Of a DNA stretch of 64,000 nucleotides, positions 1,966-56,191 are shown piece by piece. The stretch lies in contig CP075493.1 of the NCBI GenBank assembly GCA_021613535.1, forward strand, positions 11,284,001 through 11,348,000, given 5' to 3'. The position numbers and the translations under genes were made by a program. The DNA comes from Adineta vaga (taxonomy: Eukaryota > Animalia > Rotifera). Numbering within the stretch: position 1 is the first letter of the stretch; every line of letters begins with the position of its first letter. Below the pieces are notes generated by a model that saw only the letters and a list, made by a program, of their open reading frames with translations, did no database searches and was not told the DNA's origin.

Positions 1966-4900
1966 TTAGTCATTCACAAGACATTGAGTCTGATATAGAT
2001 TTGATTTTCGTCCAACCTAAAAGAAATATATGCCTTTTTAAATTGATAGCTCATCTCTATATTTACTGTTAATTTGTCTGATTTCCATTGATTATTCTTA
2101 TCGAGATAAAAACAAGATGAAGAATAAATTCTTAATCTATAATTTGATGTAAAACGACTTTGCTTATTGATGATTTGAGGACTTGTACTTATTCTTTTCG
2201 AACAATAATCACCAATCTCATCTGAAGTTAATTCTCTTAAACCGAATATTAACGTACGATGATTAGCAGTATGTTGATTATCAATATAATATGAATAATA
2301 TTTTTCATCTGTTAAATTTAACAAATTACTCGATTTATTTGTACTTTGATGGCAAAGAAAACTAAATTCATTCAATCGTTTTAGATTGATTTGTTGATGA
2401 TCAAATTGGTAAATGAATAGATACGAGGTATTCGAATCAATTGGATCAATATCGAAATGAATTGAATACGAAGATTCAATATGAATTAATTTCCAATCAA
2501 ATGATTTTGATGTAAATGAAACATTTTGAAAAATAAATTCTGGAAAAATGAGATTATTATCCCGAGGAATGAAAATTTCCTTTGCCATTGATATTTCATT
2601 TCCGTTGATATCTAAAAATGAACTGGATACGAATCGAGATAAATTCGTTGTTAATTGATTTCCATATGGAGCTAATGGCATGATCATTGACTATATAAAT
2701 AGAATTAAGAACATTCATTCGAGATGTAAGATATAGAAAAAAAAGAGAAACAAACTCGAAAGAAATATGTTTGATTTTGATTTTGTAAAGCTTGAATAGA
2801 AAATATGATTTGTGATGTATTAATAATTAGTTTTTGTTGAACATTCAAATGAATAAGTAGTGTCAATGTTAAATATGAAATGATTTGATTCACTTGATTT
2901 GTGATTTCATTTGAGAAATTTTCATCGACTATACCAGAATTTAAATGAATCATTCGTTGTTGCAATGGCCCATGAACACCCTATATGAATGCATAAATAT
3001 ATCATCAGTTTTTTTCTTTTCAGAAGAAATATATATATGATTACAGTTAAAATATTTGCAGCACTTTGAAGTAATTGAGTGTTATCATTCGTGCATCTTC
3101 ATATGAAATAGTTGATGAGATCGAATGTAAAATTTGTGATAATTTTAAACAGTTCTCTAAAGTGACGATCAATGTTGTTGATGTTAATTGATTCGTAGAT
3201 TGAGTTAAATACACTAATGTTGATGATTGTAGATAGATACTGAAAAGATGTTGAATGGTTAGATTATATTTGAATTGAAAGAAAGTTTGTCGAAGATTTG
3301 ATTGAAAATGTAAGTTTTTTGTATAGTCATCCATAATGGATTGATTGAATGTTGTAAAATTCTATAGAAAAGAATAGGAGAGAAATGTAACTTGAAATAG
3401 ACATTATACTTGTTCATAACGTTGACTATCCAATGATGAAATGGAGATCTTTACAGCTGGAATTCCATCTAAGAAAGAAGAAAACTATACTTTGTTCGAT
3501 TTGATTAAGAAATAAGAAATTTACTAGAAATAGCTCGATGAATATTTTCGTTATTTAATTGATTGATTTCTTGTGAAATTGAAGAGAGAAGTTGATTATT
3601 CATGTTTAGATTTGCAATCGAAAAGATTTTACTAAAATCATTCAATTCGAATAGATTTGCCGAAATGTTGATGGACGAGATATTCAATTGTGAATAAGAA
3701 TTGAATTTATCTCGAACACGAATGATAAGATGAAGATATCCAGATGGTAATCGAACTTGAAAATTAGAAATAATAGAAAAAGCAACGATGGTTAATTGAT
3801 ATGGATTGGTCTTCCAAAAAAACAATGTATAATCTTTAATTGAATGTTCGTCTGTCCAATTTGAACATGAAATATGAAACAAGGTTTTAATTGTTCCATT
3901 TGTAGGATCGATGCTACAGAAACCATGTGCGGGTGGTTGATTTATTCGAAAATTTAATGAACTTGAACTGATTGTATCTTTAAACGAATATACAACTTCA
4001 AATCTCCAATATTGGATCGAATTATATTTCACGAAGAAATCATTTGCAATTGTTAATCTCTTTATATTTAATCCTATGAAAAAGAGGAAAATTGAAATAT
4101 TTTCAGAAGAATTCGTTTGATTAAACTGCGTCCAGTTATGTTCATTTTCAATTGATTGATAGATATTCCATCGAATAGTTTGAATATTTGAACACTTTTC
4201 AAAACATTGAGAATCTAATAAAAGTTGATTTTAAGGATTGATCAATCGATATGATGATTGTGAAATACACAAAGTCGATATGACACAACTATAGACAAAT
4301 AAAAGTTTGCTCTTTGTTCGAAATCAAAAAGGAAATCTAGACTTGTACCTGATAAGAATGAATGGAGAAGATTGTTCTTGAATTTGTACGATTAGGTGAG
4401 TATGGAATTTCATTGAAGAATTTTCCTTATTGATTATTTCAACCTGAAATTCATACAATTGATTGAATTTTAATGAATTCGCTACAATTGTTATTGAAGA
4501 TTGTATTGAATCATCATATTTCCATGTTTTGTTCATCATTTGACAAAAATATTTATATATCCATTTCTAATCAGAAACATATACTATTACGAAAGGCATC
4601 TTCATTCTTTTGAATTGAACTTACGTTAGCATTGAATGGATATCCATCATGATCAACAGAATATTTTCCTGGATTAAGTTGCAAATCTTGTTGATATCCA
4701 TGCGTAATCATTAAAAGTCCATGTGGAATAATATTTAATGATATTCCCGATGGAACGATATGGATGAAAATCGGTTTGGATGATATTATATTTGACAAAA
4801 TCGATGTGGAAACGGTTAGTTTTATGTGATAACGACCTACTGATAATGTAGATGGTGGAATATATAAATCCTGATACGTTGTTTCAATAAATAATGAGTT

Positions 4901-7608
4901 CAGTGAAATGTCATGTGAAAAATTAGAAATTGTCCATTTTGGATAGACGAAAAATGGTTTGTCACAATTGAATTCAACGAATGAGCTAAGAAAAATTTCT
5001 TCATCTCGTTGATATTCTAATGGAGTAATCGTTTCTGGAATTAATTGAATCGATGGAGGAATTGAACATAACGGCCATGAATAAGTACCTTCATCTTTTG
5101 AAATTGTTGTAGTTGTGCTTTGGTTTGTTATTGAAATCATTGTTGTTTGATCTGAAAATAAACTCAATTCTAATCGAATTGTACCTGTCATTTTAGTACT
5201 TACCACAAGAATCGTTTAAGAAAAGAAATTTTAGAATTCGATGATTATCTCGATCGCTAACAAATATATTCCCATAAGTATCAAAACTAAGTAGTCGTGG
5301 TTGTTTCAATTGAGTGATGTATGCATCTAGTTGATCACATCCAACGAGACATCGAAAACCGTAAGGTCCAGATCCGATAATACGATGATTACTACTATCC
5401 ACAATGAAGAGATATTTATCAGCATCTAGTGTAATTCCACTAGGACATTTGAGCGTAATTGTGCGAGAAGATGATGTAACGCCTGCTAATGTCGTTCCTT
5501 CTAATATTCCAGATGAAAACGATTGAATTCGATCGTTCTGACAGTCGGCGACATAAAGATCAAAGTTCACATCAACAAAAATCCCTAAAGGACCATTCAA
5601 ATCGTTTGAAGAAGAACCATTAATACCTGTACCAGCTGTGATCGTTGACGTTTGAACGCTATTAATCAACTCTATTTTGATAACTCGATGATACTTAGAG
5701 ATTGAGCAATATACACTCTCATTGATATCAACAAAAATACTGAAACATGATGAATTCACGTGCATAATAGTAAAAAAAGTATTTGTACTCGATAGCCTTT
5801 TATCGATGCGACGTTTCGGTGCACCATTCGTAAAATAGATATCACCAATATTTGTGACAAAGATAGATGCTAAGTACGACATATTACCGGAAATGATCTT
5901 TGTTGGATTGATTGCACCATTTTCCCATACTAAAATTTTCTTTTCATCTCGATTCGAAAGATAGACGGTGTTGTTTCTACTGATAAAAATAGCAACTGGA
6001 AGAGTTCCAATTGTTGTTTGATCGGTAAAAACGATGGCATTTCGATCCCAACTTGCTGTTGGACATAGTTTTGGTTGGTTGAATGACAGAACTATAACAG
6101 AAGAAGAACAAATTTGATCTGTGTTGCTCTTATATTTTATTACCTGTTGTCGAAGTTGTTTCATTTTTTGAATGAAATAATTTTATAGAATTAGACTTTG
6201 CCTTATATGAATCTTGTTGTCTGTATGTTGTTCTTAGGTTACTAGTTGTTTCGTCTAAAATATATGTATGTATACAAAGTAGAATAGTTATGGCTTTGTC
6301 ATCGTCTGAATTAGATTAAATAATATACGATAGGTCGAAATACTACGAGTTTTCGTTGTTTATTGGTTTTTGCCATAGGATCTATTTTTTAAGTGCTCAG
6401 TTGAATACAAATATTTAGAAAGAACTAGCAATTATTTTGCTTATGCTTGTTCAGATACAACTAACATTATTTTCAAACATTCTTTCGTCTGTTCTCTATT
6501 TTCCGATGTAGCTATCCAAAAAATTCTCTTATTTTCGATTTATTAGATTTATCGAAATTAGTTTTCTTTTTCATATCACTACACATCGCTTACCACAAGA
6601 ATTTCCCAAGTATGGAAATTTTTGAATTCGATTATTATTACGATCACATACAAATATGTTTCCATAACTATCAAAACTAAGACTGAACGGATCTCGTAAT
6701 TGATTGGATTGTGAGCCTCCTCCTTGACATCCAATTAAACATCGAAAACCATATGGTCCTGATCCCACAATACGATTATTGCCCTGATCCACAATGAACA
6801 AATATTTGTCAGCATCTAGCACAACTCCACTTGGAAGATTTAGTGCAATTGTATTAAGTGCGCCATTTCCTGCTACTGTTATTCCATTTGATTGATTAAA
6901 ATGAAACAATTGAACTCGATTATTTAAAGAATCTACTACATATATATCAAAATTCACATCAACAAAGATTCCCAAAGGACCATTGAGTTGATTTGAAGAG
7001 AACCAAGTTGACCATTGATCAGTTCTTCTGAATTTGAATCAACAGTACCAGTGCCAGCTATAATGATTGATATTATCGACTTTTTATTCAATGGAGTTTT
7101 TATAACGACATGATACTGATACAATGAACAGTACATATTATCATTGACATCAACAAAAAGTCCAAAGCATGGTATCCTAGTACTTTTAACAGGAACAAAA
7201 GTATTTTTCTTAAATGTCCATTTGTACACTTGATGATTCGGATAGCCATAATCAATGACAATATCGCTTTTCTTTGTAACAAAGATAGAAAATGAATGAT
7301 GAAAGATCATTAGTAATAAGTTTCATTGGATTTAAACTACCATTAAGCCACATTAAAATTTCATGCTTTTCGCGATTGACAAAATAAATTGTGTTATTCA
7401 TATTGATAAAAATGGAATGAGGATTTATACCAATTATTGTCTGATCAACAAAGGTGATTCCATCTGAACTCCAACAAGGTGTTGAAGGAAACTTTGGTTG
7501 ATTATAAGAAACGGCTAAAATGAAGTAAAACATATAGAAATAGGAAGTTTATTCACCAAGAATTGTATAGATGATGAAAATAGGATAAATGAATACAAAA
7601 ACAAGCAT
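1966..7608 (-). pseudogene. Multi-exon NHL-repeat (2 beta-propellers) + REJ/PKD + GAIN-like polycystin-type gene, disrupted
   Basis: Signal-peptide exon (ATG 7608, MLVFVFIYPIFIIYTIL|AVSYNQPK). NHL repeats (LNGPLGIFVD..LYVAD..N.RIQ) at ~7514-6590 and ~6090-5200. REJ-like segments (LNPGKYSVDHD, INQPPAHGFCSIDPTNGT..LFHISCSNWTD). GAIN/GPS-like end (YRLRIYSSSCFYLD..QWKSD..VG...QTQC). Frameshifts near 7295, 6995 and 3080, plus an in-frame TAA at 4233-4231. Confidence 0.7.
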
Positions 7609-9509: not shown

Positions 9510-12491
9510 TCATAACTCTAAATCGATAACAATCGGTTCTTGTACTGTTTCATAATTCGAATTAGAGATCGATGCATTAACAAATGTTGTTAAGTCATAG
9601 TCGACACGTCCACATGCTTCACGAATATGACCAAAAACATGTAAACGCGGCTTGACGTTAGTAACACGAGCGCGTAATTGCGCACAGCCCACATGTATGT
9701 CCATGCTGTTTTTATCGAGAATATTGGTCGGTGGATAATTGGTGAGAAGAACATTCACATCATTTGGAATTCGAGACCAAACATCTCTGATTTCGATACT
9801 GTTGATCGGTACATTAAAAGCCGAATCATAATCTGCTGTTTGATAGGGACTAAAGATGAAGACAATTTTCCACAAGATTAGAAACAATATACATATTTCG
9901 ATGGTTTACCTGCCATAAAATTTCAGACCAGTAACACTATCGATGAATTGTTGTTCTTCTAAATAAATAATGCCATAGTCAATTGCTAACGATGGATCGC
10001 GTACAAGTTGTTTGATAACTTTAGAATTTTGTTTTCGATTATCATGCCATCGTTTCCAATTTTTCTCATAAAACATTTCGTCCAAAGTGATATCATGATT
10101 TCCGGCAATGAAGATTTTTAAACGAAATTGAGATTGATATTTGAGGACAGTGAGAAATTGTTCAATTTCATTTTGTTCGCCTGACATCGAAAAGTTGCCT
10201 GTATGCAAAAGAATATCACCAGCAGGTAGTGCAAATCCATATTGAGAGTATGTGTCACTCAAACACACAATGCGTATCGTTTTATTTGTTTTATTAATAA
10301 TATTATCTAAAAAAACAGAACTAGAATATCAACCTTTCGTGAACAAATGACTACTCACCAGATGTATCGATGGAAGATTTATCTTGCCGATCTTTCAATA
10401 TCATTACTGCATATAATTTTTCAACTTGTTTCATTTTGTTTTCAATATCTTCTTTTTCAGCCAACTACATAGAAAAAAATTAGTGAAATTAAACGACAAC
10501 ACTGAGTGTTAAATCAAATGTTTATCTCACTTGATTTATATCAATCCAAGTTAAAGTATCTTCGATATAATCAATCATTTGCTTCTTACTGTCAGCGTCA
10601 GTTTGTTCGAATAGTTTTTCATCCAGAAGGGTTGTTTTCATATTAAAACAATATAACTCAAGTGAATTCTTAGCTTCAATACAATCTCGTTGTGCTTGTT
10701 CTTCTCTTTTATAATTTTTAGCATCAGTAATCATTCTTTCGATTTCATCTTTCGATAATCGACATTGGTCATTTGTAATTGTGATTTTATTCTGACGACC
10801 TGTCAATTTATCAGCAGCATAGACATTCAAGATACTATTGGCATCAATATCAAATGTAACTTCAATTTGTGGCACACCACGAGGTGATGGTGGAATACCA
10901 GTTAGGTCAAAATTACACAATAAACGATTGTCTCTCGTCATGGTCCGTTCACCTTCAAAAACACGAATGCCGATAGCAGATTGATTATCGAAATACGTTG
11001 TAAATATCTGTGTTTGTTTTGTAGGAATGGTTGTATTACGCTTGATTAACGCTGTCATCGCACCACCTATTGTTTCAATACCCTTTTCAAAAGAAAAACG
11101 TGCTTATAAACAAAGATTAACGTTTTTCTTGTTACATCACTTACCAAAGAGAACGATACAACATCTAATAACATAATATCCTTGATCTTCTCTGATGTAT
11201 CACCTGTAAAAATAGCTGCTTGAATAGAGGCACCATAAGCTACGGCTTCATCTGGATTTATTGATTGGGAAAGTTCTTTTCCATTGAAAAAATCTTGTAA
11301 AAGTTTTTGCACTTTTGGAATGCGTACTGATCCACCAACCAAAACAACATCATGAATGCTTGCCTTATCCATTTTAGCATCACGTAGAGCTTTTTCAACT
11401 GTATCAAGTGTTGAACGAAAGAGATCAGCACAAAGTTCTTCAAAGCGAACACGAGTTAATGTTGAATAAAAATCAATATCATCATGTAACGACTCAATCT
11501 CGATCGAAGCTACTAATGATGATGATAAAGCGACCTAAACGAGAAGAGAAAAATCATCAATGAATTATTTCCAAAATGTAACTCAAAAATAAAGAAAAAT
11601 TATTTTTACTTTAACATGTTCACAAGCAGAACGTAGACGAGCAAGAGCACGTTTGTTCTTGAGTAGATTTTTGTGATGTTTTTGTTCGAATTCTTTAAGA
11701 AAATGAGACAATATTCGATTGAGAAAATCTTCACCTCCCAAATGTGTATTACCTATAGAGAAAGAGTTCAAAATAAAATAAAATGCTTGTCAACGAGAAA
11801 TCAATATATTGATTTTCCAATTACCAGCAGTTGATTTAACATCGAATAATCTATCTTCAATCGTTACAATTGACACATTAAAAGTACCACCACCCAAATC
11901 AAAAATTAATATATTTCGTGCGTCCGCATCACACGAATGGAATCCATAAGCAATTGCAGCAGCTGATGATTCATTGATGATGCGTAACACATGAAGACCA
12001 GCAATTTGAGCAGCATCCTTTGTTGCTTGTCGTTGTGAATTATTAAAGTAAGCAGGTACAGTAATAACAGCCTCAGATACTTTTTTACCAAGATACGCTT
12101 CTGCTATGTCGATCATTTTTGTTAATATCATTGATGATATTTCTTGAGGAGTAAATAGTTTTCTTTCATTTTTATAGTCAACTTGAATCATTGGTTTCCC
12201 ATCTCCATCAATGACTTGGAATGGCCAGTATTTCATATCAGCTTGAACAGTTGCATCAGTAAAATTTCGACCAATAAGTCGTTTAACATCAAATATGGCA
12301 TTATCCGGATTCACTTTTACCTGATTTTTAGCAGCGTCCCCCAAAAGGCGTGTACTATTAGTAAACGCAACATAGGATGGTGTTGTTCGATTACCTTGAT
12401 CATTAGGAATAATTTCCACTTTATCATGTTGAAATATAGCAATACATGAAGATACCGTACCTAGATCTATGCCAACTGCTGCTCTAACCAT
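9510..12491 (-). CDS. Divergent Hsp70 fused in frame to a C-terminal calcineurin-like metallophosphoesterase (MPPED/239FB-like) domain
   Basis: Hsp70 signatures [69 protein letters not shown]. The lid continues through introns 10530-10465 and 10358-10307 into [11 protein letters not shown]...IAGNHD...HVFGHIRE. All junctions checked are GT-AG and in phase. Confidence 0.85.
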
Positions 12492-13019
12492 CTTCTATTG
12501 TTGTAACTAGAGTTCTTGTCAAGAAAAAAAGCCAACCGAAAAGGTAGAAGATAAGATAAATATTCATTTATCGTAAATAAAGACTCTACAATACGGTTAT
12601 ATTTTGAGAGATATTACGAACAAACGTTGAATTTAACTTAGTAAGACGATATGAGTATGTGAAACAGCGATTTCACCCTCAAGATTTACAACCACTTACA
12701 TAAATATTCTCAAGTATCTTATTAGGTTAAAGTAAATTTTACATCTTATTAAATACAAATCAGATGGATATATTTTACTTGTTTTTTTTCGCGTATTTTT
12801 TTTACATATATAAGCATAAGACACGTGTACAAATTTATTGTATCTTTTCTTTTTCTTATTCTGTCTATCTTTACTTTGAATGTTGCTTTTACTTCATTAA
12901 GAAGAACGTGAATAACTTTCTATTCGTATAACTACATGAGAAATAGGAAAGTCTTAACAAAGATTTCATATTCGTTTGAATTTTTTAATGAGAAAAGGTT
13001 GAATAAACTCTGATCAAGT

Positions 13020-14264
13020 TCACGGACATCGGATAATCTCATCTTGATCATTCGATGACATTTTTGATTCACATGATTTTCGACTATTTAATAATTGTTC
13101 AGTAGTAAAAATAATTTCATTTCCTTTTCGTGATCGAACATCTCCACCATATTTGTTTTCTAATTGTTTTTGAAAATTACGGACTTGAATATGATCAGGA
13201 GCAAGTAATAATATCTGTCGATATATTTCATAAATTCCTTGTGTCGTTGCTTTTAAACGCATTGTTTCACGTTCTTCATCAGTAAGATTTGGAATAGTGG
13301 CTAAAATTTGATTCCATTGATTCATTAAATCTGTATCAGTATTTTCTCGAAAAGATTGATCTTTCGAACATATCGGCGTGGATTGAAGTTTTTCAATTTT
13401 ACAGATAATACGACGTGATGTATGTTCCAAATAGTTACGAAAATCTATAAATATTAACAAAAGAAATCAAGAGATGCCTTCAGTGTGTGACTTACGACCG
13501 AGATAATCTTTAAATTTTTGAAGACCAAATTGTTCTGGTTTGATATAAATTCGATCACCATAATAGGGATCCGATTCGTTGTCATATAAACTTCTCAATT
13601 CTCCAAACAGAATATGACCGAAACCATTTGGCATACAACCATGTTTGATATCCATTCCACTATATATATAAAGAAAAACAATCATCTTCTACAACTACAT
13701 TCAATGCACTTACTACGCTGGATACATTGATTTTCGTTCATCTTTTGGACCACGTTCACGAAAATGTGACGATTCATCTCCACGTACATAAATAAATGAT
13801 TTTGGAGTTGATCGAGCAAGTTTGATTAGATTTAAAATCGATGTAAGACTATTCATAACGAAATGTTTCAAACGTTTGTAATAACCAGAAAGTTGCTCTT
13901 CACTACCATAGGGTTGAGCATCTTTAGCAGTCATAAATCGAGTAAAAAATTGCTTTGTTGAATCATATAAAATAAACATTCCTTTCGAAAATTGAATAGG
14001 CTGTCCATTGAGAATTGCTTCTTGCATAAAAAAGTGTAAGAGCGAACAAATATTATCTTCATTGATATCCCTGTACGATTGATCATTTAAAATGATTTCA
14101 GCGAAAAACTTTCGACCGAAATTTGCTCGAGTAGCATTGATATTTACCTTTGGTTGTTCACAACAAGTCTCATTCGTATTCAATCTAATTGGTACTTTTC
14201 TTAATGACCAACCGTAGATCGACGAAATATAAATCAGAAAAAAAAGTATAAAGAAACGAAACAT
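13020..14264 (-). CDS. Predicted secreted protein of unknown function, 379 aa (exons 14264-13714, 13659-13496, 13444-13020)
   Basis: N-terminal hydrophobic signal MFRFFILFFLIYISSIYG. Two GT-AG introns join three ORF-track fragments in phase. Confidence 0.7.
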
Positions 14265-14492
14265 ATGGCGGGTAATATGCATATAAATATGAGAATAAAT
14301 CGTTTTATAATATACTTCATGATATTCATTCATGTGTTATATATTTACTTAAATATTTGCTTTATTAGTATGTTGTCATGAAACAAACGTACAATGGTGG
14401 CAGCAAGGAGAAGGAGAGAAAAAGAACTGTATAAGTTAATACTGATTCAACTTGAAAGTATTTGACAGGAAGAAAATTTTGAAAATATATAC

Positions 14493-17400
14493 TCAAGATG
14501 GATGAAAATATTTTGCTCGATGGTAACTATTATAATTATAACATAGTGCTTTCCATTTACATGGAACTTGACAGTGAGTTGTTGATTGGTATAGTTCTGT
14601 ATATGATGGATGTGAATATCTTGTGCGATGGGGGATACTATGATCCCGACAGTCGACTCGCCATTTGCACTCCATTTTTGCTGTTTGCGATTTCTGAAAG
14701 ATTTGTTCTTCATTAGAACTGTACACATGAGCATATTTCATACAATGATTTGGAGTGTTGTGCGAAAGACTTCGAATGTCTATTGCTCCTGATAACTCCT
14801 CGAAATGAAGACAATCAGATGGTGTTTGTGGACAAGAAGAAGCAAACGGAAGTTCAAATTCTTCGAAGCGATTTTTCTTGCACAACATTTCCAAAATATC
14901 ACGGTCAGGACAACGTGGAGCACAATGACGGAATTTACTACAGTGACTGGCAACTTCTTTTCGATATTCCATACATTTATGTGCTTTTTCACACAGAGGT
15001 AAATGACGATACTGTTTTAAATGTTCATCGTTTTGTTTCTGACATCGACCTTCGTCTGGACAATAATCTGGATGGTCGAATTCTCGTGGATGATTTTCCT
15101 CATTAATCCGGTGACATAAACCACCGTCTCGACATTGCTTTCGATGAATGAATGAAGTTGTATGAACTATATCATCCGTTCTTTTACATTTCACATTAAT
15201 AGTTGCTTGAATACAAAGAGGTGGATGAGAAAATTGATTACTATGCTGATGTTTATACATCTCCCTACATTTCGCACCATATTTGCAAGGTGTTCGATCA
15301 AATATTGTCACATTAGCAACAGTTACACCATCACTTAAAAGTCGATAAGGTCCAATGATTATATTAGATTTGTTCATTGCAGTGTTCGGTTCTACAGTTT
15401 GACCATCTAAGATAGTAGCAAACGGTTGATAGTTTCCTTCTGGATTAAGTTGACGACCAGCATTATAATCGTCAACAATAGCAAATACAATCGTGTCGAA
15501 AAAACCAGCGTATTGTTCGATAACGGAATAAAAGATTTTTGCAACATGTTCAGTTGGATTTTTAAAAGCTCCACAACCAAGTGCTGATAGAATGAGACAA
15601 TCGTGATTATGATGATGAGCTATAGCAAAGATATTTTCAATCTTTTTCCTTGTTCCAACAGCAAACTGGGGTGCAAGAAAATTCCCTTTCAATTCAGGAT
15701 CACGATAAGCAGCCATGGCAATGGAACAAACATTTTCTAATGGATTTTCCATAAAGGCATAACCTTTTTCTTCTGTTTGTCGAAAAACAGTAATACCTGT
15801 CGTATAGATAGCACCATATTCATTCATTGGATACATATTATTTGGATCTGAAATACGATCAAGACGACTCTCGGATGTGCAATGAAAACGATCAGCACGC
15901 GGTTCTTTAAGAAAATCGTCAAGACCAATATCAAGACTACGACAATAATCCGATCGACGAAAGATATTTTCTTCTTGTGCTCCATCACCTTTCCGAAATC
16001 CACCACCAGGACTAGTTGCACTTGCCATATTGAGAAGAACAGGTCGTTTACCCATTTTCGTCATACGTTCATATTCATGCAAACAATCGTTACGAACGAC
16101 ACGAATCGTCGTTCGAGAATAAGGTGTTTTTGTGAAATTTAATTTTTCCGTTCTTTCAAGAGTTGATTCATGATTATAAACAATAGTTTTCAATTCATTT
16201 TTTAAATTCAATTGTATTTCACGATCTTCAATCATAAAACTTCTTTTTTTAATAACACCAAGTGTATTTAACATGACAGTAACTCGAAGTAAATGACGTA
16301 TTTGATCTGGTGTTGGTTTCTTTGGATCATGGGAAGTACCATGAGCTGGATCACGTTTTTGGTTTTTTACACGCTCAAACTGTTCATTCCATAGGTGCGA
16401 ATTCCAACGATAACGAAAGATTTTATGTTTAGGATTAGCAACAAATTGCATTATATCCGGTTTGATTTCTAACATTTCTCTCTCATACCATGTATCATCA
16501 TCAATTTCACCTCCATCTGAATTATTTGAAGTATTGCCAAGAACCATAGTGAGCACAGTGCCATTATCAATACGAAGTGCTCCACGATCTAGACATTTTT
16601 CAAATACATCTTCGTCAGATAATTCCAGAATAAGATGATCACCAATAAGCTTATGATGTATAACTGCATTTCGAAATTCTCTATGTTTAATAATACTTTG
16701 AATGGAAGATGATTTGGGAATTGGATGTAGAACTAGTCGACAAGCAAGTTTCGTCTTTTTTTGTAATGTTATTTTATCAACAATAACAAAACTTTTCGTT
16801 GACCATAGTCTTGCGACATTAGCAGAAATAATACATGCCGAACCTGAATGTTTGTTAATTTGAACATAAAGAGAAGTCGACAGATCAGATTCTCCAATTT
16901 CACGAGCAATTGCGTCGTGTAAATGTTGTTTCTTAAATGTCGCGGTAAATCATCGAAGAAACAACTATCTGCACAATAGTATATATCACCTAAGAAATTT
17001 TTTAGTCGAAAAGTTTCATGGGATGAAGCACCTGTAAGTTCTTCTAACGAAGAAGAAACAACACGATAAATGTTCGAAAATTGTGCATTCAATATATCGC
17101 ATGATAACAATGGCTTCTCTCCTTTGTGTACCTCCAGCCACCGACGAGACACTTCCTTTGCTGTTGGTAATTGTTCATCTTGTAATTCTTTGGTGACATT
17201 GAGCACGACGTACGAAATGAGTTCAATGGTTTCAACTATTGTGATAAAATCTTTTGCACGTTTTGGATCTAATGCAATTTTTCCAATTTTGTTCAACAGA
17301 CGATCTTTCAGGTCGTTGTTAGCCACATGTATGACACCAATACCTAATTTTAAATAACATTTTACTTTCTTTGGCTTCATTGAAGCGAGATCTTCAATTC

Positions 17401-19208
17401 GTCTAGCAATTAATATTTCCAGTTTATAATCATCGTCAGTATTCAATGGTAGATCAGGTATGTAAACTATATGTGTGTGTTCGAGATTTGATGAAGATGA
17501 CCTATGCGATTTTTCTGATGTTATTGATTTTTTATGCGATGCAGATTGTCGATTATTTTCATCTGACTTGCATACTAAATAACAACATGTTAAATTATTA
17601 ATGTGGAATGTCGATTAGTAATTTAAAAGAAGTATATTTTATTAAGTATTCAAAATCAGTTATATCATCAACTAAATCGATAACATATTCTGTCAAATAA
17701 ACTTACCAGTCGATCTCTCCGACGATGAGATATGTTGTTTCAATTCAAGTGATCGTTGATGCCAATGCATACTCATATCGTAGTCACCGTTCTGTGATGT
17801 CAATTTCCCCAAATCTTCATATAATTCAATAAGTAAAGAATCATTTGGTGGAAGTTGTTTGATGAACCGATGAAAATATTGTTCTGCTAATTGAAATTTT
17901 CCCATTCGTAATAAAATGTTTCCAAATACTCGAAGGTTTGTTTCTCCATTGCCAACTTGTTGTTTCATATGATTAAGAACTTGTTTCAGATCATGTTCAT
18001 CATCATTACATAAAGTCATTCGAATAATCCAAAGCTGTTGATCATCTTGATGAATGTTCTGAAGGCGAAATATAGATCCAAGCATAAAGAGAACTTCTAA
18101 TTCATCCGCAAAATAACTGTATGAACTTATTTCAGCGAATGGTTTTGAACTAATCGTTTTAGAATCAGAATTGATTTCAAATAAAACTCGTTGTAATTCC
18201 GACGAATTATCAGAAAGTTCAAAAAAGGAAAGAGCTCGGTCCTGTAAAAGACTAGTAGAAAAGAATGAGTTAATTGAAATAAATTGTCCAATACGCTTTT
18301 CCAAAGTTTTCAATTCATTCAATGGCATCATTTGAGATCGATAAACTTGCATGGGGATTTTTGATTGATAATCTAGTAAACAATGATAAATATCTGAGAT
18401 AAATGAACGAAATAAAAATATCATATGAATATCTTGATTGCGCAATGCAGTATTGAGTGTTTTGTAAAAGAAGGATTCTCTTGTATACCACCATAATGCG
18501 TTACTTGATGAATAGCCTTCTTCGAATTCTCGAAGATTATTCATTTCATCAGGATTTCCTTGATATTGCTTTTTAAGATGTTCAACAAGTTCATTTCGAT
18601 CAGCTGGATGTGATTTCAATCGTAAAAGACAATCGACAAGAATTTGTGAAAAAACAAATTGTCCATTGACACCAGTTGTCGATGTACCAAGAGAACTAGT
18701 TGTGCTAAAGAAACTCATTGCTAACGGTTCTTCAACTTTCTTTTGTATTCTATGATCTGATTCAATTCGAAATATAAGCTCATTAAGTTCAGTAAGAACA
18801 GCTTTTATCTACAATTATTAATCAAATTGAGAATATTTTCATATTTGTATGTATATAAGTTACTTTTGAGAATTTCGATGACCATTGTTCATTAGTTTTT
18901 TTATCAGCACAATAAACATATATTGATATAACATGTTTATAGTCATGAATATATGGTACGATTTCTTTTCCTAATTTTCCATTGACAATGACAACTAGTC
19001 GGTCCTTTTGTGATCTTTCTTCGATAAAGTTTAGACACTGCTTAACATCTTGAAATTTTTTTACATGATTTATAATACAACGAAGTTTACGTTCTGTATC
19101 ACGTGATTCAGTAAGATTGGTATCGAGCCAAATAAGGCTAAATATTTTTAATTGTTTATCATGATCGTCTGTATGCATATCATCACTGGATAAATCAACT
19201 CTTGCCAT
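14493..19208 (-). CDS. Multidomain ADP-ribosylation protein: N-terminal module + ART (R-S-E) + TPR + linker/RRM-like region + microbial-type PARG (DUF2263/TIGR02452) + PBZ-like zinc fingers; one -1 frameshift near 16935
   Basis: Exons 19208-18864, 18808-17707 and 17574-14493 join in phase. ART motifs VYRSQ, FISINSFFSTS, DELEVLF. TPR-like GNILLRMGKFQLAEQYF and GDYDMSMHWHQRSLE. PARG signature LNMASATSPGGGFRKGDGAQEENIFRRS and LILSALGCGAFKNP. Repeated C-x5-C-x(6-9)-H-x5-H-P motifs at the C-terminus. Confidence 0.8.
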
Positions 19209-19889
19209 AATAATTAATAAAATAAGATAATCTGAAAATATTATATCTCGTTTTTATTTTTATTTACAACAAAATGAATGCGTGCTCATTGCTTTGTACT
19301 GTCATGAGTGCATATTTATTTACCAACGTATACAAAATTGAATAGACTGACTAATGAGAATAATTTAGTCAGCCACTTTTCTTTTCCAGGATGGAAATCG
19401 TAATCTTGCATCTCGATGTTTTCTGGCGTGGTCTAATCTAGTCACTAACTGTCTGATAAAAATGTGCGTAGTAAGAAACTTGCAAAAAAAGGATTTATTT
19501 TCCTTGATATTGCAGCATTCTAAAGCTTGTTGGACTTTCGCGGAGGTGACTCGGAAGAGCATGTAATAAAAATTTCGTGTTTCGTGCACAAAAAAAGTAT
19601 GCTTGTGGACAAAAAAAGACCGACTGATTGTAGCAACTGCTTTCGAATGTGTTTAACTTGAAAGTGAAAGTGCTTCAGTAGCATAAGATGTATGCTTCTA
19701 CGAGAAGAATACTGATTGTTGTTTGCTTATTCGTTCTGTTTGATTTTCTTCGAGACGAATAATAGTGATGTAAAAGAAGCGATGGATTTCGCTTTATTTT
19801 GATCCACTGTAATTAAAGTTTCAAAGAGAAAAACACGAGAAAAAAAGATTGCTAATCGAAAAACAATAGTCTCTGCTGCAAAACTCGAA

Positions 19890-20455: not shown

Positions 20456-21120
20456 TGCTAGCTATTAATAAATGTGATAGATGACTACTCCTAGAGAAAA
20501 AGAAAAGATTTCTTTGGAAATCATCCTGCTATATAATGTATTTTTCTTCGTTTTCTTAGTCGTATTTGTTTGGAGTAGAAGTATGTTGACCGTTTGAAAT
20601 AGGTACCTACAAATGAATAGAACTGTATTGCCGTGAATAAGCAATGGGAGATGCCGTTTCTTTCTATTTGTATATACTGATTAACATAATCATATTTACG
20701 TTGATATTCGACATTCAAATATTTCTTGAATAAAAACAGCAATAATATATAGATGTCTGATGATTCTTTCTTCGTACTTTTGATGTTTGTCATTTATTTT
20801 CTATTTTGATTGATTTTAACTGAAAAATGATCCGATTGCTCAAAGTGTGCTTATTATGATAGAGTCAATGTGTTCTTCATTCATTTCTCGATGATGAAAA
20901 ATCGATTTAAATAAGACAATTTTATCCGGTTTTCTTCAGATGGATGATGATATCGAAGAGAGGATTACCACATGAATAATAAGTATATATGTTACCCACA
21001 CCCTCAAGATAGTGTGAGCTTCTCTATATTTTTAAAAGAAGAACATTGTGAAAAATAATTTTCAACAGAAAATAAAAATCCTCAATACAACATTCAAATT
21101 TCTTTCGTTGAATTGTTTTA

Positions 21121-22390
21121 TTATTCATCTTCGTCCTCGTCGTCTTCTTCTTCATCATCTTCATCTTCTTCTTCTACTTCTTCGATATCGGCATCATCTT
21201 CATCTTCATCATCTTCCTCTTCTTCTTCATCATCATCTTCTAAATAATCAACCTCATCTTCATCGTTCCAACCTTCATTGCCCATTGTTGCAACTCCTAA
21301 CTTTTTAACTGTCCAAGCAGCATTACATAATTCATCACTTCCCAAATAATCATATGGTATATAACAATAACCTCGATCGCCCTAAATGCAAAGAAAGAAA
21401 ACATTTGTCGCTGGAATAAATTATTGAAAAACTCACCCAAACTTGTCCCCACGAATTCCGTACAATGAATGCTCTCGAATGATCACTATAGCCAGCGACG
21501 ACAAGAGCATGACTAAAACAAATCAATTTCTCTCATATCGAAATCAATATAACCATTCAAGAATATAATTACCTTCCATGTGATGAACGACCTATTTCAT
21601 TAGCTTTTGGCATAGGAACAATTCCATGGTCATCTGCTTTGTCAAATGACTTGAACAGATTGAGACTGATGAGAAAAGGATATCCTTGAGCAAGACAAGC
21701 TTTCATCTCATTCACATTTATATCAACTTCAAGCGCTTCGGTAATACTGTTTGATACAGCAGCAGCATAACACTGTTTATTTGGTTTCGTATTGACTTTT
21801 TTAATATTATATGGCCATAGCCATTCAGCACAAACACCCTGTTCTTCAACGGCTTCAATTGTTGTAGCAATACTCGTACCTTCATCAGTAATATCAGGAT
21901 CACCTTCGTTATCTTTAATTCGACTGTTGTAGTAAATAAAGAGACGACTGACATCTTCTAGACGACCAGTAATTCTGTAGTTCAAATACTCATAGATTCC
22001 AGCCATGGCATTTGCCGTACTATAAGAATAGATTAAAACGGAGTGGTGCTAATATGAATACGTGATACTTACCAACTGTTTGCATCAGATTGATCTTCGA
22101 TCTGTGTCATCCATGGTCGAAGATCAACTTTTTGTGGTAATTGTGGAGCACTGTAGACGACATATTGTGAGAAATCTCTGTTTAAACTAGCTTTCTGTGG
22201 TTTTTTCGCAGTATCTTTTGAACCATTGAGACGAAAACGTTTGTTTGTCTTCCGATTGTGCAAGAATGTTTTCTTGATGATATGTCCTTTATCTTTGGGT
22301 ATTTGAGCGGTCATTGTAGTTCTATGTGATATTCAAAAGAAAGTTATCATCAATATGATCCTACTTCACAGATGCCTACCTACTAGCCAT
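21121..22390 (-). CDS. Papain-family (C1A) cysteine protease, bacterial-type, with Asp/Glu-rich tail, copy 1 (5 exons)
   Basis: LPQKVDLRPW..IEDQSDANS|C|TANA (oxyanion Q, catalytic C split by an intron), SRLFIYYN, HALVVAGY (His), FIVRNSWG (Asn), GDRGYCYIPYDY. Poly-D/E C-terminus. Confidence 0.88.
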
Positions 22391-22802
22391 TGACAAACTT
22401 AGTAGTTTTTTGCCCTACAAAGGAAAAACATTATACAGAAATTATGCTGCTATGTCATTCTAAATACTTTGTTGTTACTCTTTTTATGATGTAGATATAT
22501 CGTTTAAAATAAGTAGTGATAAAGAATAAATACGTTAAATATTTTTTTGTTATGATATTATTCATCCACCTGTGTTTACTGACTTGTGACAAACGACGAG
22601 AAGAAGAGAAACAAATACATGTTAAGATGTAATTACTATAGTGTTGACATGAATAATCGAACGGATACGCCTTTTTTCTGTTCGAAGTTCAAAAATTCTA
22701 CAAATATTCATTGTGAATTTTATTAAAATAATCTCTGTGACGCGAAATATTGATGAAATATAGTAAAAAAAGATTTTCATTGAATAGAAAATAAAAATAT
22801 TA

Positions 22803-24056
22803 TTATTCGTCGTCATCATCATCTTCATCATAGTCTTCTTCTTCTACTTCTTCGATATCAGCATCGTCATCATCTTCATCATCATCATCTTCTTCTTCAT
22901 CATCATCTTCTAAATAGTCCTCCTCATCTTCATCTTCCCAACCTTCGTTGCCCATCGTTGCAACTCCTAACTTTTTAACTGTCCAGGCAGAATCACACAA
23001 ATCGCTATTTCCTATATAATCATATGGTATATAACAGTAACCTCGATCACCCTAAATCAACAGAAAAAAAGAGATAATTTTTGTTGTAATAATTTATTAG
23101 AAAACTCACCCAACTTTGTCCCCATGAATTTCGTACAATAAATGCTCTTGAATGATCGCTATAACCTGATAATACGACAGAATGTCTACAACGAAATAAG
23201 AGAAAAAGAACTATTGTGAAGTTTGATATAAAACAATTACCTTCCGTGGGATGCTCGACTTGTTTCAGTACTTTTCGGCATAGGAACAATTCCATGTGTA
23301 CTTGCCTTATCAAAAGATTTGAACAATTCGAGAATAAGTAAGATAGGAAATCCTTGAGCGAGACATGCCCTCATCTCGTTCAGATCGATATCAACTGCAA
23401 GTGCTTCGCTGATGCTATTTGCTACAGCAGCATCGTAGCATTGTTTATTTGGTTTTGTATTGACTTTTCTTATATTGTATGGCCAAATATACTCTGGACA
23501 GACACCAAATTCTTCAACAGTTTCAATCGTGGAAGCTACAGTACTTCCATCATCGATAACATGAGGATCATCATCGTTATCTCGAACTCGAGCATTGTAG
23601 TAGACAAAAAGACGACTGACATCCTCAAGACGACCTGTAATTCTGTAGTTCAAATACTCATAGATTCCAGCCATGGCATTTGCTGTACTATAAGAATGGA
23701 TTAAAACGGAGTGGTGCTAATATGAATACGTGATACTTACCAACTGTTTGCATCAGATTGATCTTCGATCTGTGTCATCCATGGTCGAAGATCAACTTTT
23801 TGTGGTAATTGTGGAGCACTGTAGACGACATATTGTGAGAAATCTCTGTTTAGACTAGCTTTTTGGTTTTCGAGCACTGTCTTTAGCGCCATTGAGACGA
23901 TAACGTTGATTTGTTTTTCGATTGTGCAAGAATGTTTTCTTAATAATAGGTCCTTTACCTTTTAATGTTTGAGTGGTTGTGGTAGTTCTACATGAAATTC
24001 AAAAGAAAGTTATTACTAATCTGACTAAATTTCAAAGATGCCTACTTGCTTGCCAT
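22803..24056 (-). CDS. Papain-family (C1A) cysteine protease with acidic tail, copy 2 (tandem paralogue)
   Basis: Same exon structure and catalytic Q/C/H/N residues as copy 1, offset by about 1,668 nt. Confidence 0.88.
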
Positions 24057-54981: not shown

Positions 54982-56191
54982 ATGAATATTTGGATTAATG
55001 ATGTCAATAGTAATAACAATAAGCAAAATGCATCAGTTGCACCAAAAACAGGAATGTGAGTTTCATCAATTAAGTTCATAACTTTGTTCGAAGATGTCAA
55101 TTACTCACTGATTTGATATTTTTAGATCGTCAGTTGAAGCTAGTACAATGAGTCCTTTTCAACGTTTATTATTACCAATAAGTCGTCTAAGAATTATCAG
55201 ACGATTGACGGCTATATATCCTTCTAGGAGCATCTTGCATGGACGTTCAGAAGTATGTAAATATGTGGATAGAACAAACACCATAACTATGCATTCTTTT
55301 TTTTTGATAGATACCAACGTCAATATCACCAAATGAAAAGTAATTGAATCAACAATCAATCATTACGAAACTATCTTTCTGCATTTATAATTTTTTTACA
55401 GATTTGTTAGTGAACAACTGATTGAAAATATCGATCATATAGGTATTCTTGGCCTTCTATTTGCTGCTTTTGTTGCTGCTATTATTCTTGGATTTTTCAG
55501 TTTAATCTTTAGTTTACAATCTGGTAAGATATCATCTTTAGATAGATAGATTTATTGATCTTAGAAAATTTCGATTATTCTAGAATTACCAACTGGTACA
55601 ATTCTTCTCTATAGTGGACCTTCATCGGCCTTATTGGGCCAAGATGATCGATGGCTCTTCTGTAATGGTTCTGAAGTATCTCGAAAAACCTATCGAAGAT
55701 TATTTGATGTTATTGGTACTATATATGGTATTGGTGATGGTGTCAATACATTCAATTTGCCTGATCTTCGAGATCGGTTTCCATTGGGTAGTACTCTAAG
55801 TAGTGATGTGGTAATGGTTGCTGGTGGATCTGCAACGCATGCAATTACTGTAGCCGAGATGCCTTCACACAGTCATAATCAAGGATCCTTAAAAGCATCA
55901 AACAATGGTACACATACACATTCGTATACTGATCCAGGACACGATCATGGCGGATTAACAGGTACTGAACCTCTGGGTGTTGGTACTGCAGCAATGGTAA
56001 ATTCTGGTACTCCTGGTAATGGTGATGGTACACATAGTCATTCGATTTCTACCGATCAAATAGATATAGTAATTGATACTGATGGTAATCATACTCATAC
56101 CATTAGTGGATCGACAGGTGCAGCAGGATCAAATCAACCTATGAGTCTGATACCACCGTATCAAACAGTACATTATATCATTCGAACGTAG
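54982..56191 (+). CDS. Predicted type II membrane protein with phage tail-collar domain and HxH-repeat tail-fibre tip, 319 aa (exons 54982-55055, 55126-55252, 55311-55339, 55402-55523, 55584-56191)
   Basis: Four GT-AG introns give one open frame (960 nt). TM helix IGILGLLFAAFVAAIILGFFSLIFSL. Collar motif LPTGTILLYSG..WLFCNGSEVSRKTY..LFDVIGTIYG.GDG..TFNLPDLRDRFPLG. Then GGSATHAITVAEMPSHSH, five HxH motifs and PPYQTVHYII. Confidence 0.85.

Follow-up and report, generated by a model that had tools for sequence, protein, structure and literature searches.

A 64-kb window of the Adineta vaga genome, by which we mean the whole stretch of DNA analysed here, carries on its minus strand (14493..19208) a gene in which an ADP-ribosyltransferase (ART) cassette is spliced onto a shortened duplicate of a gene for a microbial-type poly(ADP-ribose) glycohydrolase (PARG) with C-terminal zinc fingers. 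The gene corresponds to the public model I4U23_003663 (P0001), to which its 3' open reading frame (ORF) is 100% identical. It consists of four open stretches (19208-18864, 18808-17707, 17574 to ~16940 and 16949-14493), which the initial annotation had joined through two GT-AG introns, 18863-18809 and 17706-17575, into a single protein of about 1,509 amino acids. Both introns are present in the sequence, and both were found as exact joints in RNA contigs. The spliced coding sequence (CDS), stop included, is 4,529 nucleotides long, 1 nucleotide less than 1,510 codons, and the predicted length is correct provided that the frame is whole. The features of the gene are collected in Table 1.

Table 1. 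Features of the chimeric gene, in window coordinates and ordered from the 5' end. P0002 is the parent paralogue and P0003 another member of the parent family; aa, amino acids; nt, nucleotides.
Feature	Position	Strand	Remarks
Exon 1	18864..19208	-	aa 1-115; most of the 'LIWLD' receiver-like domain
Intron 1	18809..18863	-	55 nt, GT-AG, phase 0; RNA joint 18808/18864 in runs X15 and X17
Exon 2	17707..18808	-	End of the receiver (REC)-like domain, R-S-ExE ART, two TPRs
VYRSQ	18346-18332	-	ART R motif
FFSTSL	18265-18248	-	ART STS motif
DELEVLF	18106-18086	-	ART ExE motif
Intron 2	17575..17706	-	132 nt, GT-AG, phase 1; links the cassette to the duplicated gene piece
Low-complexity diverged linker	17469..17574	-	Homologous to the parent stretch before the RRM-like region; 29% identical to P0002 aa 306-356, 37% to P0003 aa 122-175
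RRM-like region	16545..17482	-	Approximate limits, weak assignment via the fungal homologue P0212
Shared block, nearly identical to P0002	14907..17468	-	RRM-like region, PARG, fingers 1-5
Frame break	16930..16945	-	Window 1 base shorter than the paralogue; if real, stop at 16,769 after 750 aa, upstream of PARG
Microbial-type PARG macrodomain	15462..16265	-	PF10021 (PARG_cat_microb), E 5.4e-22
PARG signature GGGFRKGDGAQEE	16007-15969	-	GGG-x7-QEE
PARG second loop SALGCGAFKNP	15587-15555	-	
Eight C-C-H-H fingers	14502..15287	-	Starts 15287, 15215, 15134, 15062, 14993, 14834, 14669, 14561
Degenerate finger	near 14910-14850	-	C, H, H lost
In-frame internal deletion point	14700..14727	-	Finger 7 fused to the family's two terminal fingers

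Contigs from four RNA-type and four DNA-type runs were analysed for the splice joints. Runs X15 to X18 were taken as RNA runs, a type guessed from their contigs, in which both splice joints are seen and 19348-19700 is uncovered. The 18808/18864 joint was exact in contigs of X15 and X17 (two of the four RNA-type runs, from two studies), and the 17574/17707 joint, for which spanning transcripts had been proposed as a check, was exact in X15 and X16 (two of four, from one study). The X16 contig runs from 18179 to 17707 and continues from 17574 to 17438, that is, from the ART-TPR exon through the splice with 137 letters on the short side. Spliced joints were absent from all four DNA-type runs, in which the introns are unspliced, and three of these runs yielded a gap-free contig of 2,057 nucleotides (17409-19465) across the genomic junction, 60 nucleotides of it inside the shared block. 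The 3' end that is specific to the window (14440-14936) is likewise covered by RNA contigs, with three differences in X15. Because the ART-side junction is present in DNA contigs and spliced in RNA contigs, it is both genomic and transcribed.

The N-terminal cassette (amino acids 1-482) was modelled with AF2 (pLDDT 85) and compared with structures by VIA and Foldseek, and residue conservation was counted over 67 sequences of the cassette family. The N-terminal module, known until now by its letters 'LIWLD', is predicted to adopt a (beta-alpha)5 receiver fold ending at about amino acid 141 in exon 2. The model matches the MrkE receiver with a VIA Z of 13.7 and a root-mean-square deviation (rmsd) of 2.1 Å over 113 aligned residues, and many other receivers match as well; an Atlas lookup of the module returned unnamed rotifer clusters only. 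The end of beta3, which we take to be the phospho-Asp site, is occupied by N76 in the window gene and by Ser in 52 and Asn in 13 of the 67 family sequences; as no canonical phospho-Asp stands there, we call the module a pseudo-receiver. The ART was confirmed by PF03496 (ADPrib_exo_Tox; E 1.5e-5, 24.9 bits against a cut-off of 23.4), with PF01129 under its cut-off, and by the presence of the R, STS and ExE residues originally noted (R272, S299-T-S and E351-L-E353), of which the R is conserved in 67/67 family sequences, the first E in 64/67 and the catalytic E in 67/67. Its modelled fold matches Vis in Foldseek (E 1.5e-9; C3 and HopU1 were also matched) and Vis, HopU1 and ART2.2 in VIA (Z 13.4-13.6). 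The cassette ART thus shares fold and R, STS and ExE residues with Vis, HopU1 and ART2.2, C3 being a fold relative, but unlike these it has no visible signal peptide, is preceded by a pseudo-receiver, is followed by TPRs and variable cargo, and is ~20% identical. The expected TPRs are present, although limited to two (about 17938-17732) and under the Pfam cut-off.

Downstream of intron 2, the assignment of the macrodomain to the DUF2263-type PARGs was borne out by PF10021 (79.2 bits against a cut-off of 23.5) and by matches to the T. curvata PARG 3SIG (E 1.3e-12) and the D. radiodurans PARG (E 1e-10). The microbial PARG signature is given as GGG-x6-8-QEE in the accessible text of PMC4245714; the spacing in the window had been read as x6 and is x7. 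Two positions of the window PARG, T1090 and Y1119, are altered where 10/10 outgroups are invariant. The linker region before the PARG has no Pfam match in the window, and a family profile matches RBMS1 RRMs at E 1. The fungal homologue P0212 carries RRM_1 (E 2.6e-6) and is matched by the bdelloid linker profile at E 1e-5, indirect evidence suggesting that the linker is RRM-like.

The seven or eight fingers originally counted are eight with all four C-C-H-H ligands and a degenerate one besides, but the PBZ profile (zf-CCHH, PF10283) is reached by finger 1 alone, at 22.7 bits and exactly at the cut-off. Homologues score far above the window copy (P0023, 79 bits), and the family profile matches the APLF PBZ at E 0.017. 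In their spacing (C-x5-C-x6/7-H-x5-H), and in these Pfam and APLF matches within the family, the fingers resemble the PBZ fingers of APLF and CHFR. The ADP-ribose pocket of APLF consists of an aromatic residue after the first C plus C-Y-R, according to the available part of PMC6264785. By inspection, the first aromatic is present in 3/8 window fingers, the C-Y in 1/8 and the R in 1/8, and, unlike in APLF, the full pocket is present in 0/8. The missing pocket appears to lower the probability that these are canonical readers of poly(ADP-ribose) (PAR), not that their fold is PBZ-like.

The PARG part of the gene has a close paralogue, P0002 (I4U23_003738; 2,159 amino acids), whose core is 96% identical in amino acids to the window copy and which is its sister with a support of 99 in a quick tree of 74 PARG cores. 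Identity to this parent is uneven along the window copy, from 29% in the linker to 96% in the core and 68% in fingers 6-7. A paralogue-type RNA contig spans the shared block with 71 differences and 7 gap letters relative to the window; over 14,907-17,420, the DNA runs are about twice as deep as in the ART part, and the RNA contigs of greatest depth exit the window at 17,468. The shared block has likely been homogenised by gene conversion, to judge from this pattern. The last two fingers of the window copy match the terminal fingers of the family, with 37% identity to P0003 and 8/8 ligands kept. P0001 residues 1301-1366 correspond to P0003 1009-1074 and residues 1369-1441 to P0003 1955-2042, evidence of an in-frame deletion that removed ~880 residues, among them several fingers, the ART-fold domain of the parent and the domain that comes next. 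The window copy would then be a duplicate that lost its N-terminus, underwent this deletion and gained the cassette. Changes that could be polarised numbered 17 on the window side and 8 on the parent side in the core (p 0.11), and 19 and 1, respectively, in fingers 6-7 (p 4e-5). Two of the indels relative to the paralogue (15899 and 16880) are 3 nucleotides each; together with the in-frame deletion and the retention of 8/8 ligands in the last fingers at 37% identity, they suggest past selection on the frame.

The initial annotation had supposed that one base is missing near 16935, and the window is indeed 1 base short there. A longer form, with an extra base near 16,940, was found in 8/8 runs (4 DNA-type, 4 RNA-type) and the form of the window in 0/8. 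Taking this count as proof of an assembly error was considered and dropped, because the same contigs carry paralogue-type differences. Those with the extra base also hold the paralogue-type 3-nucleotide insertion at 16,880, and the RNA ones exit the window at 17,468 into paralogue sequence, the loose end translating (by hand) to the P0002 peptide SPSTSKPLQT. At 16925-16950, where an inspection of raw reads had been proposed, the contigs with the longer form thus belong in part or entirely to the paralogue. Calculations from depth at the break did not tell two copies from three. The contigs are mosaic elsewhere (11, 17 and 17 differences in X1, X2 and X8 over the same 737-nucleotide contig), which makes the longer form in 4/4 DNA runs likelier if the window form is an error or confined to a single allele. 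At least one allele is probably in frame, as far as can be judged from the sequence. The public model P0001 spans the break by an extra, third intron (about 17131-16932), for which no joint was found in the RNA-type contigs, an absence that carries little weight in contigs. All three indels relative to the paralogue (15899, 16880 and 16940) lie in CCG/CG-rich contexts of an AT-rich gene.

To place the fusion among its relatives, we searched with P0001, which returned 111 proteins, and assembled 497 proteins in all; these are a searched-for set from incomplete searches, and counts over them do not measure prevalence. The cassette has BLAST matches in 113 of the collected proteins, 88 of which begin with the whole cassette. 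Seventy-five of these cassette starters fall in one linked group, mostly with NHL or more TPRs, and the remaining 13 in 10 other groups. Among 21 chosen proteins, Pfam recognised as cargo an MLKL-like kinase, PARP, ABC transporter, filamin, PDZ, macrodomain, myosin VI, Ig and kringle. The REC-ART-TPR cassette therefore appears, from such gene models, to be a mobile bdelloid module placed ahead of about ten unrelated cargos. The view that an ART-TPR cassette expanded in this lineage became joined to a gene for a microbial-type PARG followed by PBZ-type fingers is upheld by these counts, by the parent P0002 and by the spliced junction. The models with the cassette before a macrodomain (P0289), PARP domains or MLKL-like kinases (P0333, P0334, P0309, P0313, P0322 and P0341) include one, P0341, with a further ART after the kinase.

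Cassette ART and PARG occur together in 3/497 collected proteins, namely P0001 and two models (P0134/P0497) of one Rotaria socialis gene. The R. socialis fusion stands next to its own parent P0079 (92% identical) in a separate clade (support 100), and the ART-PARG fusion therefore arose twice. This gene is split in one assembly, and two other models skip 87 residues including R and STS; on the sequence it looks broken in the ART exon. The search for the same architecture thus produced an independent fusion but, among the 497 proteins from these incomplete searches, no conserved pairing across lineages, the three proteins representing two unrelated fusions. A first metagenome scan found nothing, and a second found the cassette in 3/80 loci (L021, L022 and L025, apparently one locus), where it lies downstream of the parent-family gene on the opposite strand and is not fused to it. 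There (L021:11363-12763, minus strand; also L022 and L025), a cassette with a long TPR array is tail to tail with a parent-family gene and reads through without the first intron. Two tandem parent-family genes are found at L006 and L007.

The ART-fold domain deleted from the window copy is a nearly constant part of the parent family: of the 120 long homologues listed (171 were found), 119 carry it after the fingers, with a length of ~400 residues (about amino acids 1340-1760 in P0002), the only exception being P0001. Pfam does not recognise it, and a sequence profile searched against the PDB gave no ART. When modelled from P0003 (pLDDT 92), its nine best rows in Foldseek (E no better than 7e-3), like its nine best in VIA, were ARTs or Tpt1 without exception. 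VIA Z values were 11.4 for SopF, 11.1 for OspC3, 10.9 for CopC, 10.4 and 10.3 for DarT, 9.9 for DarT1, 9.6 for DarTG and 8.5 for Tpt1, against 7.3 for the next unrelated structure (rmsd 3.0-4.4 Å), and Atlas named OspC and DUF3626 at 0.89, a lead only. Glu335 is conserved in 82/82 sequences and His57 in 77/82; from the strand order of the model, we infer that they are the equivalents of the catalytic Glu and His of DarT. The parent domain thus shares the ART core fold with DarTG and the SopF/OspC3/CopC/DarT/Tpt1 group, at 6-14% identity and an rmsd of 3-4.4 Å, and is absent from the window copy. As DarT is paired with DarG, the parent's ART-fold domain is paired with a macrodomain eraser; unlike DarTG, the parent family is eukaryotic, forms one chain of ~1,700-2,300 amino acids, uses a PARG-type eraser and has RRM-like and finger modules. 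In 118 of the 120 long homologues, the ART-fold domain is itself followed by a second, unannotated domain (P0003, about amino acids 1590-1800).

A search of 1.84 billion representatives with the C-terminal domain gave 330 matches, and PARG was above its cut-off in 16 of 32 long ones scanned. Chains with PARG and the C-terminal ART-fold domain were found in Pharyngomonas kirbyi and Diphylleia rotans (transcriptome ORFs) and in the Endogonales fungus Jimgerdemannia; the PARG signature pattern was not matched in the P. kirbyi and D. rotans ORFs. The two domains co-occur in 177/497 collected proteins and also in continuous frames of metagenome loci. Because the same PARG-plus-ART chain exists in other eukaryotes, it is not established that the PARG came directly from bacteria. 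The ART-fold domain was also seen with LRR-Roc-COR, GBP, EF-hand plus PARP, TPR and kinase modules (P0401, P0433, P0443, P0451 and P0482), a spread that resembles conflict or immunity proteins.

Bond chemistry bears on whether the two enzymes of the window gene could act on the same mark. The R-S-EXE motif marks arginine-specific ARTs, whose modification is reversed by ARH1/DRAG (PMC3102197, available part). For PARG-like macrodomains, the accessible text of PMC10951314 describes mainly O-glycosidic bonds and no evidence for arginine-linked protein ADP-ribose, and it lists arginine-specific macrodomains (MavL, Larg1) without the PARG motif. PARG leaves the terminal protein-linked unit, but reverses phosphate-linked ADP-ribose on DNA and RNA ends (PMC8883491, in the part consulted). 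Since ExE predicts arginine and PARG-like enzymes act mainly on O-glycosidic bonds, the ART and the PARG of the window gene would deal with different bonds.

The window gene, a spliced chimera of a receiver-like-ART-TPR cassette and a shortened RRM-PARG-finger duplicate, is most likely a young, drifting fusion and not a tuned switch, an interpretation to which we give roughly even chances. Its ART would add single ADP-ribose units to arginine, gated by the pseudo-receiver and the TPRs. The captured RRM-PARG-finger part would bring the ART to complexes containing PAR or RNA, where the PARG would trim PAR chains without undoing the mark made by the ART. A matched writer-eraser pair is instead predicted in the parent family, in the order RRM-like modules, PARG, fingers and then the SopF/OspC/CopC/DarT-fold ART with its invariant glutamate. 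Judging from the structural model, the parent family, not the window copy, is likely the single-chain writer-eraser. The mark we favour, as a guess by analogy from the RRM-like modules and the DarT and Tpt1 fold relatives, would be one on nucleic acid that PARG can remove; SopF, OspC3 and CopC modify proteins. In its widest form, to which we assign an equal measure of belief and doubt, the proposal is that an unrecognised enzyme for reversible ADP-ribosylation is common to bdelloids, an Endogonales fungus, a heterolobosean and Diphylleia. It would unite in one chain RRM-like modules, a finger array, and a PARG and a SopF/OspC/DarT-fold transferase that are both active, and would act plausibly through phosphate- or O-linked ADP-ribose on nucleic acid. 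The window gene would be a natural writer swap, with that transferase deleted and an arginine ART cassette in front.

Several observations weigh against a young, drifting fusion encoded as one chain. The whole gene is spanned by no contig of the 4 RNA-type and 4 DNA-type runs, the short-read contigs do not show which of the two entries to the shared block goes with which of its two exits, the overlap at the 3' junction is only 30 nucleotides in contigs, and the own sequence of the window locus across the break was recovered in none of the 8 runs. The PARG tree is a quick version with SH-aLRT support only, and the cassette-cargo proteins are gene models, some of which may be false joins of neighbours. 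The excess of changes in the core is not significant. Synonymous core substitutions, counted from the best 40 of 116 and 40 of 139 rows within 14881-16908, are 21/44 against 21% expected (p 9e-5); this points to purifying selection in at least one lineage, which the count does not allow to be assigned, and 'drifting' may therefore overstate the case. It is also conceivable that the break is real on both alleles and that the gene is a transcribed dead chimera, its product a 750-amino-acid REC-ART-TPR protein with part of the RRM-like region, so that ART and PARG never share a chain. Consistent with this, the window sequence itself is 1 base short, a substitution adjoins the break, which a simple sequencing slip of one base would leave unexplained, all three gene models of the R. 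socialis fusion show damage, and the PARG has changed at T1090 and Y1119. We nevertheless consider it rather unlikely, since 4/4 DNA-type and 4/4 RNA-type runs give the longer form only and the reading frame has survived two triplet indels and strong divergence of the 3' end. If two of four copies were short and coverage decided between the forms, 4/4 would be expected in about 1 in 16 cases, an estimate that takes no account of a strain or bias that the runs may share.

The initial annotation had pictured a self-contained switch, a toxin with a built-in antidote, in which the mark written by the cassette ART is read by the fingers and erased by the PARG of that chain. In its favour, one spliced transcript has every catalytic motif intact, the fusion arose twice independently, a cassette-macrodomain model (P0289) exists and some macrodomains do act on arginine (MavL, Larg1; PMC10951314, accessible text). 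This switch is nonetheless very unlikely: the arginine predicted by ExE is unmatched by an O-glycosidic hydrolase, macrodomains of the arginine-specific class have no PARG motif, PARG stops short of the terminal protein-linked unit (PMC8883491, part consulted), most cassette proteins have no eraser, ART and PARG are paired in only 3/497 proteins, and the window copy combines an excess of amino-acid change with 0/8 full finger pockets. The drift itself would be bait evolution if the cassette were an immune executioner fused to copies of host proteins, the PARG-finger part serving as bait for a parasite effector in an integrated-decoy receptor. A constant cassette with conserved catalytic residues before about ten unrelated host-like cargos, including an MLKL-like kinase, a PARP and a macrodomain, the capture of the same parent family twice and the concentration of amino-acid change in fingers 6-7 would all suit such a receptor. 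However, NHL or TPR repeats are found in most cassette proteins (75/88), an abundant 5' cassette that captured exons at random would leave the same pattern, each PARG fusion has a lesion in the assemblies examined, and the argument proceeds by analogy with the integrated domains of plant NLRs; we regard a decoy as unlikely. Finally, the 2.5-kb shared block, with its doubled depth and no spanning contig, might have caused a wrong join that put an ART entry and a short 3' end from different loci together. The record lies on an 18-Mb contig, the ART-to-RRM junction was recovered independently in DNA and in RNA contigs, which leaves the ART-PARG join standing whichever exit is used, and both flanks are homologous, diverged parts of one duplicate; an assembly artefact is extremely improbable.

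Proteins of the PARP14/PARP9 type combine writer, reader and eraser modules with RNA-binding modules in one eukaryotic chain. Unlike these, the rotifer proteins use different ART clades and a PARG-type catalytic macrodomain. The parent family includes P0033 (B3G4H5_ADIVA). An A. vaga PARG with PBZ repeats has already been reported (PMC4245714), with the same order of a microbial PARG and repeated PBZ-type fingers; the accessible part of that description makes no mention of an ART-fold domain at the C-terminus or of an ART cassette at the N-terminus, and in the window copy the former has been exchanged for the latter. In A. vaga, desiccation and irradiation induce ADP-ribosylation genes (PMC10809525, available part), and in the accessible parts of PMC10809525 and PMC12220480, ADP-ribosylation and PARP genes respond to stress with no mention of the genes described here. 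The consulted portion of PMC3417536 holds nothing on them, the gene numbers were not found in one small supplement of PMC10809525 (7,229 characters), and literature searches, whose coverage excluded most subscription papers, turned up no account of the C-terminal ART, the fusion or the cassette.

The window gene is in itself a modest case, a rare and possibly broken fusion. The parent family carries more weight: the SopF/OspC/CopC/DarT-fold matches are, Tpt1 aside, bacterial effectors or toxins, and this family would be a conserved eukaryotic member with PARG in the same chain. To a family described so far as PARG plus fingers, the model adds an unannotated putative catalytic domain. By analogy with the induction of ADP-ribosylation genes in A. 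vaga (PMC10809525, available part), the family is a candidate in the response to desiccation and irradiation. The REC-ART-TPR cassette, with its many cargos, shows a route to new genes in bdelloids.

Other genes in the window were noted in passing. Directly downstream of the chimera is an ORF (13713-14336, minus strand) that has no Pfam match and whose 5' part is covered by RNA-type contigs, followed by an HSP70-like gene (10522-12494, minus strand) with, by eye, several unusual residues in conserved motifs, and by NHL-repeat and REJ-domain exons (3505-6182, minus strand). Upstream lie two tandem copies of a gene resembling papain-type cysteine proteases with an acidic tail (21036-23716, minus strand; assigned by eye, one exon giving no Pfam match). 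Farther away on the plus strand (55565-56191) is a phage tail collar ORF (PF07484, E 3e-19, and Gp10_C), likely a foreign gene.

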